Assembly: GCF_051903065.1 (NCBI RefSeq)
Contig: NZ_CP178438.1
Reading direction: 5' to 3' (one strand)
Origin: Escherichia coli
GTDB lineage: Bacteria; Pseudomonadota; Gammaproteobacteria; Enterobacterales; Enterobacteriaceae
DNA: 64,000 nucleotides
Under the pieces are notes generated by a model. The model did no database searches, had not been told where the DNA came from, and was given only the letters and a program-made list of their open reading frames with translations. Made by a program: the position numbers and the translations under genes. Of the stretch, positions 18,708 to 24,676 are shown piece after piece (position 1 is the stretch's first letter; every line of letters begins with the position of its first letter).

Positions 18708-19361
18708 TTAATCTGTCACTTCTCGCCATTCGCCATAAGCAAGATTATCCAAAGAGTAATCACCCATCGCATAACGAATCAGTCGCAGCGTGGGGAAACC
18801 AACATGGGCGGTCATGCGGCGCACCTGGCGATTACGTCCTTCATATAAGGTGATCTTCAGCCAGCTGGTGGGAATACTTTTGCGTTCACGAATTGGTGGA
18901 TTCCGCGGCCATAACCACGCAGGTTCGTCAACCAGCTCCGCGCCGGCGGGCAGGGTAGGGCCATCATTTAAGGTTACGCCATTGCGCAAGGCTTCAAGTG
19001 CATCTTGTGTGGGAATGCCTTCCACCTGCACATAATAGATTTTTCCAGTGCGTTTGCCTGGCTGGGTTAAACGCGCCTGTAGTGCACCATTATTGGTCAG
19101 CACCAATAACCCTTCGCTATCTCTGTCAAGACGACCTGCTGCATAAACGCCCTGAACCGGGATGAATTCTTTTAATGTTTTGCGTCCGGCTTCATCGGTG
19201 AACTGCGGAAGAACATCGTAGGGTTTATTGAACAGGATCACACGCGTGGGCTGGTTTTCAGGTTTACGCCTGGTAGAACGTTGCGAGCTGAATCGCTTAA
19301 CCTGGTGATTTCTAAAAGAAGTTTTTTGCATGGTATTTTCAGAGATTATGAATTGCCGCAT
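18708..19361 (-). CDS. rluE: 23S rRNA pseudouridine synthase RluE
   Basis: 217 aa, RsuA-family motif [11 protein letters not shown]. Confidence 0.92.
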
Positions 19362-19532
19362 TATAGCCTAATAACGCGCATCTTTCATGACGGCAAACAA
19401 TAGGGTAGTATTGACAAGCCAATTACAAATCATTAACAAAAAATTGCTCTAAAGCATCCGTATCGCAGGACGCAAACGCATATGCAACGTGGTGGCAGAC
19501 GAGCAAACCAGTAGCGCTCGAAGGAGAGGTGA

Positions 19533-20783
19533 ATGGAAAGTAAAGTAGTTGTTCCGGCACAAGGCAAGAAGATCACCCTGCAAAACGGCAAACTCAACGT
19601 TCCTGAAAATCCGATTATCCCTTACATTGAAGGTGATGGAATCGGTGTAGATGTAACCCCAGCCATGCTGAAAGTGGTCGACGCTGCAGTCGAGAAAGCC
19701 TATAAAGGCGAGCGTAAAATCTCCTGGATGGAAATTTACACCGGTGAAAAATCCACACAGGTTTATGGTCAGGATGTCTGGCTGCCTGCTGAAACCCTTG
19801 ATCTGATTCGTGAATATCGCGTTGCCATTAAAGGCCCGCTGACCACTCCGGTTGGTGGCGGTATTCGCTCTCTGAACGTTGCCCTGCGCCAGGAACTGGA
19901 TCTCTACATCTGCCTGCGTCCGGTACGTTACTATCAGGGCACTCCAAGCCCGGTTAAACACCCTGAACTGACCGATATGGTTATCTTCCGTGAAAACTCG
20001 GAAGACATTTATGCGGGTATCGAATGGAAAGCTGACTCTGCCGACGCCGAGAAAGTGATTAAATTCCTGCGTGAAGAGATGGGCGTGAAGAAAATTCGCT
20101 TCCCGGAACATTGCGGTATCGGTATTAAGCCGTGTTCGGAAGAAGGCACCAAACGTCTCGTTCGTGCAGCGATCGAATACGCAATTGCCAACGATCGTGA
20201 CTCTGTGACCCTGGTGCACAAAGGCAACATCATGAAGTTCACCGAAGGCGCGTTTAAAGACTGGGGCTACCAGCTGGCGCGTGAAGAATTTGGCGGTGAA
20301 CTGATCGACGGCGGCCCGTGGCTGAAAGTTAAAAACCCGAACACCGGCAAAGAGATCGTCATTAAAGACGTGATTGCTGATGCATTCCTGCAACAGATCC
20401 TGCTGCGTCCGGCTGAATATGATGTTATCGCCTGTATGAACCTGAACGGTGACTACATTTCTGACGCCCTGGCAGCGCAGGTTGGCGGTATCGGTATCGC
20501 CCCTGGCGCAAACATCGGTGACGAATGCGCCCTGTTTGAAGCTACCCACGGTACTGCGCCGAAATATGCCGGTCAGGACAAAGTTAACCCAGGCTCTATT
20601 ATTCTCTCCGCAGAGATGATGTTACGCCACATGGGTTGGACCGAAGCCGCAGACCTGATTGTTAAAGGTATGGAAGGCGCAATCAACGCCAAGACCGTAA
20701 CCTATGACTTCGAACGTCTGATGGAAGGCGCTAAACTGCTGAAATGTTCAGAGTTTGGTGATGCGATCATCAAGAATATGTAA
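19533..20783 (+). CDS. icd: Isocitrate dehydrogenase (NADP)
   Basis: 416 aa, [38 protein letters not shown]...; uninterrupted 3' end. Confidence 0.97.
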
Positions 20784-20805
20784 TCACTACATGTGTTAAA
20801 TATTT

Positions 20806-20838
20806 AAACGGGCGTATAACACGCCCGTTGTTTTATTT
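20806..20838 (+). terminator. icd rho-independent terminator
   Basis: Stem acgggcgt / acgcccgt followed by a T-run, about 25 nt after the icd stop. Confidence 0.75.
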
Positions 20839-20885
20839 ATGTGGATATTATTAATAGCATATCGAGCATATTTATATAAAACCTA

Positions 20886-21209
20886 TTACTTGAGCCCATA
20901 TGGGCATATTTTTATAATGCAACTCTTATGCAAACATTTATTTGTTATTTCGCTTTCTCCTGGAGGACACTCTTGACTGCTTTTAAGTAAACTCCATAAA
21001 TTCTTGTTGAATGGTGCAATGTTATAAATAGTAATAGGATATTCTTTATCCTTAAGGATAATACCAGGCTTAACCGGTGTAAATATACTTCCAGGAGGAA
21101 GAAATATAGTAGATTGATACCAGATAATCATTTTCATATCACCCCATATGGCTGAAAAAGATATGCCGCATGTAGGTTGAATTACCGTGTCAATTACTAC
21201 CCACTTCAT
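20886..21209 (-). CDS. iraM: Anti-adaptor protein IraM-like (RssB inhibitor)
   Basis: 107-aa [26 protein letters not shown]...CPYGLK in an AT-rich setting next to icd; identity recalled from memory, not searched. Confidence 0.6.
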
Positions 21210-21665
21210 TTGTTATGTCTTATCCCACGGTATTTAATATAGTTCATTTGGATGTTCATTTCTTTATTTTGCATATGAGTATATTACCCCTTCAAAAAAT
21301 AAATTAATTAAAACGATTGCTTATATAAAACAAAATTTAAAGCAAGGAATCTCAATGGATGTTAAACAAAATGAGATTTAGTGAAAACAATAAATTATTC
21401 ACTTCGTTTTAGATTTGTTTAGCTATAATGTTATACATTCAAATGACTGACCATCCTGTAATTAAAACATAGCCTTTATGCTACTTTGTGCCAATTTGCT
21501 AAACATTATGGTTGCCTTTTTATATAACGATAATAATGAATATAAGCATGACATGAGAATAAGGTTTCAATTTTTGAGTTATATAGGAAAGGTTTAACCT
21601 GTTCCTGGCTAAAATACATATAACTGGATGATGACTAAACCAAAACACATGTGCGTTAAGTATTG

Positions 21666-21696
21666 AAACGGGCGTATGGCACGCCCGTTGTTTTTA
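21666..21696 (+). repeat. Second copy of the icd-terminator hairpin (orphan, possible att-site remnant)
   Basis: acatgtgcgttaagtattgaaacgggcgtatggcacgcccgttgttttt closely matches 20791-20838; no plus-strand gene upstream of it. Confidence 0.6.
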
Positions 21697-21904
21697 TAAA
21701 TATATTAACCGTTATAAAATAACGTATAGAAAGTCAAGTGATCACATTTCAAATGTCAATTTGATAGTATTGGCCTGGTGATTATTTATGGGTAGCAATA
21801 AAAGGACAGTATTTATCATCCATAGGGATAGTCTCTGTACTTTTATTCCCATTATGCTAATGCCTTACTGAATTATGAAGCATTTCTTAAGCATCCAACT
21901 TTAG

Positions 21905-22309
21905 CTAGATTAATGGTTTATTATTTTCTACATCTTCAATATATAAAAGCGTATTATCAATGGCGTAGTAACTGCGTTTGTTATGATTAACATCAGTAAC
22001 CCAACGGAAAACGCCCGCGTCTGCCAGTATTGAACAGTATTCCCGAAATGTAGATTTTCCGCAAATATGAAGCAATGCGGCCTCTTTTATTTTAGCAGGG
22101 TTCTTGGTCGTACTAACTTTTAACAGGTTCCTGGTTCCTCTTAATAACAAAACCGTGTCATCGTGAGTAATAATTCTGATGTTATCCGTAGCCAGATAAT
22201 AAATGTAATGTGCAATACGGTGATGTTTTAATTCTGAATAAAACCAGGAGAAGTTTTGCTCTTTTCTCACTTGCTCAAACATCTTTTGAAAAACAACGAC
22301 CTGATCCAT
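21905..22309 (-). CDS. ycgX: Uncharacterised 134-aa protein (YcgX-like)
   Basis: 134-aa ORF between iraM and bluR, matching K-12 order; assignment rests on position and length. Confidence 0.55.
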   Translation of the reverse strand: MDQVVVFQKMFEQVRKEQNFSWFYSELKHHRIAHYIYYLATDNIRIITHDDTVLLLRGTRNLLKVSTTKNPAKIKEAALLHICGKSTFREYCSILADAGVFRWVTDVNHNKRSYYAIDNTLLYIEDVENNKPLI

Positions 22310-22529
22310 CAGGATAATAACCTCTTGTTAGTTGTGAGACTGCGTAGTGTGCACGATCGGTTTTACCACTTCAATCTGGTCTGTCCTTTGGCTGTGATAT
22401 GTACAAAGTGTGAAAGGGGGATTACCTGAATTCTCCCGGTGAGCATTTTGTAATGGACCAGCTCCGGTACAAACGCTGTTGTGGGTTCAGATTATAACAT
22501 TCTGTCTAAGGGGCGGGATAAAGGTGAAA

Positions 22530-23261
22530 TTAGGGGGCATGAAAGATGACTTTATAACCTTGCTCACCCCAGTGTTGTAAAAGTTCATTTTGCCTTCTCG
22601 TTGGTGCCATGCCTGTCCAGACAATCAATGTTTGCGTCGGGAACAGTTCCGGGCGCGGTGATTCAATGGGATCAGCAAGAACAGAAATATGCCATCCTGA
22701 CAATGATAAACGCCATGCTTCCAGCCACAATCGAGCTCTCTCTTCAACATTCCACGCCATCAGAATGGCTTCTTTACCGGGCTTACGGCGCATTTCGAAA
22801 AGCGAGGCTGCTGCATATTCAATTAATGCGCCGTCAAACATACTGCTCATAATGCGGGAGGTGTTGTGATCAAGCACGAGACGCTGGCGAACAGGAAGGT
22901 AAACATGATTAATCAATTGATCTACTGGGTACTCTCGACCCAGTGAAATAATTCTCGCGCGTAGTTTGGCAGGATTAGCCATACGAAGAATTGACATCAT
23001 CTCTTCTTGCAAGCGGCTCCAGTCATCTTCCGTATCCTGGCTGGTGGTTTCCAGTAATGCTTTAACTTTGCCTACAGGGACGCCATTACTTATCCAACGC
23101 TTGATCTCTTCGATACGTTGTATGTCTTCTTCATCAAAGAGTCGGTGTCCGCCTTCACTGCGCTGTGGTTTTAACAAACCGTAGCGGCGTTGCCAGGCCC
23201 GGAGAGTGACAGGATTAATCCCGCAACGTTCAGCAACATCACCAATGCTGTAATAAGCCAC
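22530..23261 (-). CDS. bluR: MerR-family transcriptional repressor BluR
   Basis: N-terminal MerR helix-turn-helix ([30 protein letters not shown]); 243 aa; adjacent to bluF. Confidence 0.9.
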
Positions 23262-23464
23262 AATTCCTCCTTGCGGTCATAAATCTCCGTCGCCTGTATA
23301 CGACCCAATAATACTTTGTACAATATACGCTAAAATTGTACAAAGTATAAATAAGATTTTAGCTAAATTGGATGAAACATTATTTTTAATGTGGATTAAA
23401 TTAAAACATAACGTATTAATTTTCACGATGATTTCCAGAAACATGCAAAATAATGTGCTGAAAA

Positions 23465-24676
23465 TTATTTTTTCTCCGGCCACGCAACTGAAGGGATACC
23501 ATTCAATTTAGCTTTAGCAAACAGATCCCCCTGAAACATCTCAATTCCTGCGGATTCAAGCCACATCCACTCTTCTGGTGTTGCCACGCCCATAGCACTG
23601 ACTTGAATTTCAAGTGATGTACAGCATTTTATGATCGCCTGAATAATTGCCTGCCGTGGTCCGCTTTTATGAACATTGGTAATCAATTCCTGACTGATTT
23701 TAATTCTGTCAGGCTGGAAGCGTGACAGGAGTAACAAACCAGCAAAACCTGCGCCAAAATGATCAATTGCTACACTGATACCGGCAGCCTTTAGCGATTT
23801 AACCGCTTCGGCAAACTCATCAAACCGAGATATGACTTCACTTTCAGTAAATTCAACGATGATTTGTTCAGGCACCAGACCATTGGCCTTTATTTCATCA
23901 AGTAAAAAAGAGACTGCGTCAGGCTCGTTAACCAGGGTCATAGGTAATAGATTGATAGATATCATTTTATCACCGAGCTCAAGTGCGTGTGCCATCGCGA
24001 ATACAAGCGCCTTACTTTTGAGATCCGCTGTGTAGATTTCCCCGTCTTTACGCTGCCCAACCGCTATAGCTGACGGGCTGTCTTCATTTTTTTGCACAAT
24101 GGCTTCAAAAGCGATTATCCGCCGCGATAAGGGATCAACAATAGGATGAAAGGCAAAGTGGTCGTTTATATTTGGTGAAAGGGTACAGGAATCAAGTTCT
24201 TTATCAGATCCGTCAGCGATAAAAAGCCAGGAGTCTTCAGCAGGAATCTCGAAATAGGTTGATTGTTCGGTTGCAAGGACAAAAGTACGAAAAAATTGTA
24301 GCGCTCTGTCATCATAAGTTAGCTGAAATTTTGATGTGCCTTTGTCGAATACGGCCTGTAAAACGTCATCTCGCTCGTGCAGGCGTAAATCAAATAATTC
24401 CATTCCCGCTTTGCCAAAACGGCGAGCAGGCGCGTAATCGCACAGCAGCTCAACAATATTATAGTGCCGTGGATCCTGGCATATAGCCCGATATATCATT
24501 TTAACCTGTTCTTCCGGACCTTCCAGAAGCTGGAAAAAATGAGAACCATTAAACAGTAAGATCCCTGTTACGTCAGACTGCATGTTCCTGCGATTTGCTA
24601 TCGAAACCATTTCTTCGATTTTTTTGACAGGTTCGTCGTCACGTATATGGCTACGATAAATAAGGGTGGTAAGCAT
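23465..24676 (-). CDS. bluF: Blue-light sensor BluF (BLUF domain plus degenerate EAL domain)
   Basis: Start at MLTTLIYRSHIRDD (BLUF), 26 codons inside the track ORF; C-terminal EAL-like domain. Confidence 0.9.
   Translation of the reverse strand: MLTTLIYRSHIRDDEPVKKIEEMVSIANRRNMQSDVTGILLFNGSHFFQLLEGPEEQVKMIYRAICQDPRHYNIVELLCDYAPARRFGKAGMELFDLRLHERDDVLQAVFDKGTSKFQLTYDDRALQFFRTFVLATEQSTYFEIPAEDSWLFIADGSDKELDSCTLSPNINDHFAFHPIVDPLSRRIIAFEAIVQKNEDSPSAIAVGQRKDGEIYTADLKSKALVFAMAHALELGDKMISINLLPMTLVNEPDAVSFLLDEIKANGLVPEQIIVEFTESEVISRFDEFAEAVKSLKAAGISVAIDHFGAGFAGLLLLSRFQPDRIKISQELITNVHKSGPRQAIIQAIIKCCTSLEIQVSAMGVATPEEWMWLESAGIEMFQGDLFAKAKLNGIPSVAWPEKK

Follow-up and report, generated by a model that had tools for sequence, protein, structure and literature searches.

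A duplicated icd terminator module around the iraM cassette of Escherichia coli, a probable trace of phage-type integration

Introduction

In the stretch of Escherichia coli chromosome analysed here (64,000 nucleotides, referred to as the window), the terminator hairpin that follows icd is found a second time on the far side of iraM, with no e14 prophage at the site. The locus therefore raises the question of how this terminator came to be duplicated, and what the two copies tell about the origin of the AT-rich segment between them. iraM is under PhoP control in K-12, and its product stabilises RpoS under Mg2+ starvation. An earlier note, made from the sequence of the window alone, had described the two hairpins as an att-site-type duplication at the icd hotspot and iraM as part of an old integrated remnant. 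In the literature, iraM was found to be absent from CFT073, it was termed evolutionarily labile together with iraL and rssC, and it was stated to be 'found on the e14 prophage' (PMC4045071).

Results

Gene layout of the icd–bluR interval

The window chromosome is 100% identical to NZ_AP045789 across the region, and the RefSeq annotation of NZ_AP045789 was used for the gene calls (Table 1). The gene order given in the earlier note, an intact icd followed by iraM, ycgX and bluR with e14 absent, was correct as far as it went; the RefSeq annotation adds two minus-strand genes that had been overlooked, ymgK and ymgL, whose small proteins have both been detected in K-12 (PMC6001520). On the minus strand the order is ycgX, ymgL, hairpin B, ymgK, iraM and hairpin A, the whole series converging on icd. 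The GC fraction drops from 0.51–0.54 in icd to 0.27–0.33 over 20750–21950, which agrees with the previous description of the iraM segment as AT-rich. The only open reading frames or annotated genes within the cassette (20839–21644) are iraM and ymgK; no integrase, excisionase or other phage gene was found there, so the cassette is at most a remnant and not an element. An Rfam scan of 19000–24000 gave nothing at gathering score, the sub-threshold hits (E 0.4–0.8) being of the chance kind, and thus no known sRNA ends at copy B.

Table 1. Features of the locus. Positions are those of the window, except for the last row, which refers to loci of the EC42405-type allele.
Feature	Position	Strand	Basis
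icd (NADP isocitrate dehydrogenase), intact, no prophage inserted	19533–20783	+	ORF list; RefSeq annotation of NZ_AP045789
icd 3′ end and terminator segment; att homology block common to phage 21-family phages and e14 attP	20619–20836	+	blastn against phages; phage 21 annotation; K-12 icdC pseudogene spans the same block
Repeat copy A: icd 3′-UTR spacer, hairpin (stem-loop 20807–20829), T-run	20785–20836	.	Repeat search, terminator scan, alignment
AT-rich iraM cassette, 806 bp, unique DNA between copies A and B	20839–21644	-	GC; population presence/absence
iraM (anti-adaptor of RssB; PF11183; phrog_4407)	20886–21209	-	ORF list, RefSeq annotation, profile matches
ymgK, 14-aa small protein gene, region upstream of iraM	21462–21506	-	RefSeq annotation
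Repeat copy B: spacer starting at palindrome CACATGTG, hairpin (21667–21689), T-run	21646–21695	.	Repeat search, terminator scan, alignment
Copy B right flank, putative degenerate e14-type arm-site repeats (TAACCGTTATAAAAT...GTATAGAAAG)	21696–21744	.	Local alignment against e14-like arms
ymgL, 36-aa small protein gene; stop 53 nt upstream of hairpin B (minus strand)	21742–21852	-	RefSeq annotation
ycgX (DUF1398; phrog_413), phage-family gene beyond copy B	21905–22309	-	ORF list, RefSeq annotation, profile match
bluR	22530–23261	-	ORF list, RefSeq annotation
EC42405-type island: copy-A-type hairpin, e14-like left arm, 455-aa hypothetical gene, IS remnants, trkG, diverged iraM′ with own terminator, extra YmgB/AriR-family gene, ymgK-like region	L029 14006–22091; L028 5400–7400		

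The duplicated unit

The repeat search returned an ungapped direct repeat of 43 nt (20792–20834 against 21652–21694), with 88% identity and a spacing of 860 nt. When a 2-nt indel is allowed, the homology reaches left to (C)ACATGTG, with identity at 42 of the 46 aligned positions and a unit of about 50 nt, so that the sequence of roughly 45 nt seen twice in the earlier reading (at about 20791–20838 and 21650–21696) is confirmed as a repeat, with the limits given in Table 1. The unit begins at the palindrome (C)ACATGTG, 2–6 nt past the icd stop, and ends with the T-run. Both copies are terminator-like on the plus strand, each consisting of a 9-bp stem with six GC pairs, a 5-nt loop and a T-run (terminator scan). 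This hairpin pattern is present at exactly two sites in the 64-kb window, with a chance expectation of 0.03, and that count was not attained in any of 100 shuffles.

About 20 nt of spacer 5′ of the hairpin are common to both copies, so the likeness exceeds the stem, and the case in which the second copy would align over a generic hairpin only does not apply: by pairwise alignment, copy B also carries the icd 3′-UTR spacer. Intrinsic terminators do have one general shape, which is all that could be said for two generic GC-rich terminators looking alike by chance; the near identity includes an AT-rich spacer, the pattern occurs far more often than expected and at precisely these two sites, and the edges of the repeat are the edges of an indel in the population (see below). 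A chance resemblance is already refuted by these observations.

The right flanks of copies A and B are unrelated to each other (p = 0.92). An icdC remnant upstream of copy B, at which a MAFFT alignment had hinted (~58% identity), was dropped: local alignment of 21300–21644 with the icd 3′ end gave a score of 20, against 20.3 ± 2.7 for the dinucleotide-shuffled null (p = 0.58).

Phages that attach at icd carry the terminator

A 301-nt query from the icd 3′ end was compared with phages by blastn and matched them with 93.5–98.2% identity over query positions 60/66–277, which correspond to 20619/20625–20836 in the window. The match always stops at 20836, which is the end of the hairpin T-run and also the right edge of the repeat. 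In phage 21 and its relatives (4A7, ev017, 1H12 and others), attP contains the last ~165 nt of icd and a hairpin identical to copy A, in a block of ~212 nt, and the annotation of phage 21 gives the order icd′ pseudogene, terminator, arm sites P1–P3 and int. In K-12, e14 supplies the icd 3′ end, a homologous hairpin whose stem differs (AACGGGAGCG/CGCTCCCGTT) and three TTATCAAAA arm repeats, the stacking being icd′, e14 hairpin, e14, icdC, copy A, iraM, copy B and ymgL. The comparison with the e14 attachment sites and with icdC that had been proposed for this locus thus finds the same hairpin module in e14 attL, and icdC covering the 20619–20836 block. Since the attP sites of the phage 21 family and e14 include the icd end and the hairpin, every phage that uses icd adds a terminator of its own, and the one already present is displaced.

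The hairpin was also found in 41 viral contigs, 30 of which end at the icdC–copy A–iraM flank and four at an icdC–single copy–ymgL flank, the remaining seven having arms of the phage 21 or e14 type. None of these 41 loci has a B-type left flank; the icd stop is on the left in all of them. In Escherichia phage D2 and vB_EcoM-689R6 the match already begins at the first position of the 301-nt query and so reaches further upstream than the block of phage 21 and e14, a hint of a further crossover position within icd.

Population alleles of the interval

The population survey comprised 5426 complete E. coli genomes. DNA of the cassette (20839–21644) is present in 3945 of them at 92.8–100% identity, most with an uninterrupted icd–iraM junction, and an empty junction with a single hairpin is found in 1037 (counted as genomes covering at least 80% of the E2348/69 junction). 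In E2348/69, SE15, ZH063, BEN2908 and others, icd (or icdC, the pseudogene that a prophage left) is followed by one hairpin and then by the right flank of copy B and ymgL, the empty site joining the left flank of copy A to the right flank of copy B. The repeat unit therefore delimits a presence/absence polymorphism of the cassette. A placement of iraM within e14 was considered and rejected, because the window, which lacks e14, does contain iraM, and because the K-12 gene is located beyond icdC/attR.

A rare third allele, found in 19 genomes (for example EC42405, NZ_CP043414), carries, between icd and ycgX, an island of 8 kb (Table 1), and has neither copy B nor ymgL. Its iraM′ is 79% identical to iraM at the nucleotide level. 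The small-ORF region of ymgK is kept upstream of this diverged gene at ~71% nucleotide identity (L028 5575–5640; window 21462–21506), and from this conservation it may be a leader element of iraM, not an independent gene. The ycgX of EC42405 is 11.7% diverged and falls outside both other haplogroups, which differ from each other by 2%, and iraM′ still lies beside it.

A midpoint-rooted tree built from the 480 nt on the right side of the hairpin separates the empty alleles from the iraM+ alleles, each group being a clade, except for Nord1 (NZ_CP139953), an empty allele that sits within the iraM+ haplotypes. In Nord1, two tandem copies of IS200C follow the single hairpin (L032 2054–3500); in the related strain 20Ec-P-124 (NZ_AP017610), IS200C abuts the T-run of each of the two hairpin copies (L038 208–380 and 1781–1953). 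The nested position of the Nord1 allele, with IS200C at its junction, means that secondary loss of the iraM cassette does occur. The icd terminator module looks like a preferred target of IS200C, and paired copies of this element could drive the loss. In Nord1 the hairpin loop itself is inverted (L032 2054–2081), reading GTTAT instead of ATAAC with the stem unchanged, which looks like a quasi-palindrome change of the template-switch type.

Because the ycgX of EC42405 stands outside the other haplogroups and yet has iraM′ beside it, the sequences mildly favour a secondary loss of the cassette in B2-like strains over a late gain. Right-flank haplotype divergence was tried as a dating tool and was uninformative, since in the first 200 nt K-12 (iraM+) is nearer to E2348/69 (empty) than to the window. 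A BluR-based scan of genome contigs for an outgroup locus recovered Citrobacter, Klebsiella, Kluyvera and similar genera only, with no Escherichia, and a search for BluF homologues passed directly from E. coli (at least 94%) to Citrobacter (76%), with no non-coli Escherichia between. YcgX homologues at 69–76%, taken as candidate outgroup loci, proved to be prophage or unrelated loci. bluF and bluR are found together in Citrobacter, Klebsiella, Kluyvera, Cedecea and others (L005–L016), where they are not beside icd, ycgX or iraM, and among the taxa recovered the icd–(iraM)–ymgL–ycgX–bluR arrangement appears to be specific to the E. coli lineage.

Possible arm-site traces beside the copies

The 50-nt right flank of copy B, like that of the lone hairpin in empty strains, can be aligned with e14-type arms at an identical offset (TAACNGTTATNAAAAT ... 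GTATCAAAAG). Local alignments were tested against dinucleotide shuffles as the null, with the T-run excluded. For the common allele of this AT-rich flank (E2348/69, K-12), p was 0.0000–0.012 against four e14-like arms and 0.98 against the phage 21 arm; for the more mutated allele of the window, p was 0.035–0.09 against the e14-like arms. This similarity suggests that hairpin B may once have been the attL hairpin of an e14-like element, the remains of which would include ymgL and ycgX. A corresponding search to the right of copy A was significant against one of the four arms; the region is the 3′ flank of iraM, also common to the diverged allele, and the match was set aside as probably spurious.

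An e14-like arm beside copy B would imply that the junction between icd and copy B predates the cassette. This can be reconciled with a secondary loss in B2-like strains if all of the layers predate the split of the haplogroups.

Copy A is constant and copy B decays

Copy A is invariant in all 37 sampled genomes and contigs, and identical to the hairpin in the attP of phages 21 and 4A7. Copy B has six alleles among 35 sampled copies, 33 of which are mutated: 28 have changes that weaken the stem, five have a broken T-run, and two, including that of the window, are intact. The predicted folding energies of the copy B stem mutants are -8.2 to -11.0 kcal/mol, compared with about -15.4 kcal/mol for the intact form; one allele differs in the T-run alone. 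The single hairpin of empty strains is intact in seven of eight. For copy A, a stability of about -15.3 kcal/mol is predicted on either strand, and the copy B of the window folds equally well on both. Read from the sequence, the minus-strand U-tract is fair after copy A and poor after copy B (UUUCAAUACUU). In the supplements of papers on 3′-end mapping (Term-seq), no entry was found for the sites of hairpins A and B.

The constancy of copy A fits a selected terminator for icd and, by its position, also for the convergent iraM, with the activity predicted from its structure; it may be continually refreshed from the phage copies. Copy B would fit a decaying relic under little constraint, despite lying downstream of ymgL. 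As the earlier note had it, there is no plus-strand gene for copy B to terminate, to which it has to be added that the hairpin is two-sided and lies downstream of the minus-strand ycgX–ymgL. The same note had named the conserved terminator of a missed gene as the case that would overturn its reading. Such a gene, ymgL, had indeed been missed, yet copy B is mutated in 33 of 35 copies while copy A never varies, and this argues for a relic and not for a conserved terminator.

In K-12-type copy B (RP437, L003 2553–2580), both partners of one stem pair are changed, from G-C to A·G, and there is a further A-to-G change beside the loop. These changes are not compensatory. An allele with the first change only also exists (L049).

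It could still be argued that copy B is kept as a functional terminator of ycgX–ymgL that shields the iraM promoter, and is thus an adaptive insulator and not a scar. On the minus strand, ymgL stops 53 nt before copy B, both ymgL and ymgK are expressed, the hairpin of the window is equally stable on its two strands (about -15.3 kcal/mol), and in single-copy strains the lone hairpin lies between the convergent icd and ymgL. Nearly all copies of B, however, have lost stem stability (to between -8.2 and -11.0 kcal/mol) or an unbroken T-run while copy A stays constant, and the minus-strand U-tract that follows copy B (UUUCAAUACUU) is poor. We regard an insulator as quite unlikely; even if true, it would account for the retention of copy B and not for its origin.

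Phage affinity of iraM and ycgX

IraM matches phrog_4407 over its full length (E = 1e-50). Homologues with 63–65% amino acid identity are encoded in Stx2 phages, where the gene follows stxB, and in E. albertii prophages, where it lies between Q and the lysis genes; to judge from these matches, IraM is a member of a phage 'moron'-type protein family. YcgX, beyond copy B, matches phrog_413, and a homologue with 69% identity lies between the lysis genes and the terminase in a lambdoid prophage of E. albertii. When phage genomes were searched with the cassette, the iraM coding sequence alone gave matches (72% nucleotide identity), and no non-coding cassette DNA was found. A search of phage genomes with copy B and its flank matched the bare hairpin alone, with no hairpin of the B type. 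The iraM cassette has the look of a phage moron that stayed behind at the icd integration hotspot and was domesticated.

Discussion

The explanation we favour, and hold to be probable though well short of certain, is that copies A and B both represent the icd 3′-UTR/terminator module, which a site-specific integration of the phage type at the icd hotspot duplicated. The att-site-type duplication of the earlier note is thus upheld as the preferred reading, by an indel bounded by the repeat unit, an attP homology ending at 20836 and a cargo gene of a phage family. Its second proposal, that iraM belongs to an old integrated remnant, is supported by the cargo, the repeats and the empty sites, and falls short in that the locus has neither an integrase nor an icdC remnant.

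Temperate phages with icd as their attachment gene, such as the phage 21 family and e14, each carry their own icd 3′ end and terminator, so that icd stays functional after insertion, and each integration thus shifts the resident terminator downstream, the phage copy coming to adjoin icd. At the locus studied here, an old integrated element would later have been trimmed by deletion to its cargo, namely iraM, the region upstream of it and ymgK. The working copy would be A, the one beside icd, placed to stop the transcription of both icd and the convergent iraM. Copy B would be the displaced earlier terminator, now decaying, followed by arm remnants of an even older insertion on the ymgL–ycgX side. 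The repeats would also delimit the loss of the cassette. The repeat, the indel that it bounds, the attP homology with its boundary, the phage affinity of IraM and YcgX and the contrast between a constant copy A and a mutating copy B are observed. What we infer is that an integrase was responsible for the duplication, in which order the layers arose, and that the terminators are active.

The left boundary requires an additional step. Since no icdC precedes copy B, a crossover of the e14/21 kind, about 165 nt inside icd, cannot by itself give this boundary. It would have been produced either by a deletion that ended almost exactly at the old icd stop, or by a different crossover, at the left edge of the repeat. 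One elaboration of the latter, which we consider unlikely, is that (C)ACATGTG was the crossover core of a third att specificity at icd, and that iraM was delivered by an element carrying the terminator module only and not the 165-nt coding end. Counting the putative arm scar as well, phages would then have landed in the interval at least three times in succession, every landing leaving a terminator copy behind, and IraM would have been domesticated from the middle layer. Searches of phage genomes and viral contigs did not find an extant element with a crossover of this kind.

A different origin would dispense with site-specific recombination, the duplication having arisen by illegitimate or short-homology recombination, or by replication slippage at the hairpin, with the resemblance to att incidental to the hotspot. 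The lack of an integrase and of an icdC remnant would be expected of such an event; the hairpin is recombinogenic, to judge from IS200C after the T-runs in two strains and the inverted loop in one, and the flanks of the cassette are in no phage searched. Against this, a sharp-edged target duplication of ~50 nt is unusual for an illegitimate insertion, its right edge is where the attP homology of phages ends, the cargo gene comes from a phage family, and repeats resembling e14-type arms follow copy B. In our judgement these observations leave a non-site-specific origin with a small chance of being right.

The site-specific origin would place the source of a studied stress regulator, IraM, at the icd hotspot, and the position of iraM outside icdC/attR corrects its published placement in e14 (PMC4045071). 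The absence of iraM from strains of the B2/ExPEC type is structurally accounted for by a clean single-hairpin site, whether by gain or by loss. The locus involves no new mechanism and is another prophage/att remnant at a classical hotspot, but it illustrates on a small scale how phages equipped with a substitute gene end and terminator may leave 'fossil' terminators, which record past integrations.

Compared with the integration of e14 and phage 21 at icd, the locus, the terminator hairpin inside the homology block and the right boundary are the same, direct repeats flank foreign AT-rich DNA, and other strains have a single-copy empty site. The iraM repeat differs in being only ~50 nt long and starting past the icd stop, whereas the duplication made by e14 and phage 21 includes ~165 nt of coding sequence as well; the insert, which has no int or xis, measures 0.8 kb instead of 15–45 kb. 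With bidirectional intrinsic terminators, copy A shares a GC stem between an A-run and a T-run and a position between icd and iraM, and the hairpin of single-copy strains is likewise interposed between icd and ymgL; copy B, in contrast, has no plus-strand gene and is degenerating, and termination at this locus is predicted from sequence. The likeness to grounded prophage remnants and morons lies in the survival of a single AT-rich accessory gene of a phage family (phrog_4407), with homologues in the moron slots of lambdoid phages, and in the phage-family character of the neighbouring ycgX. Unlike these systems, the cassette resembles phage DNA in its coding sequence alone (72% nucleotide identity), with no flanking phage DNA in common, and iraM is a regulator used by the host.
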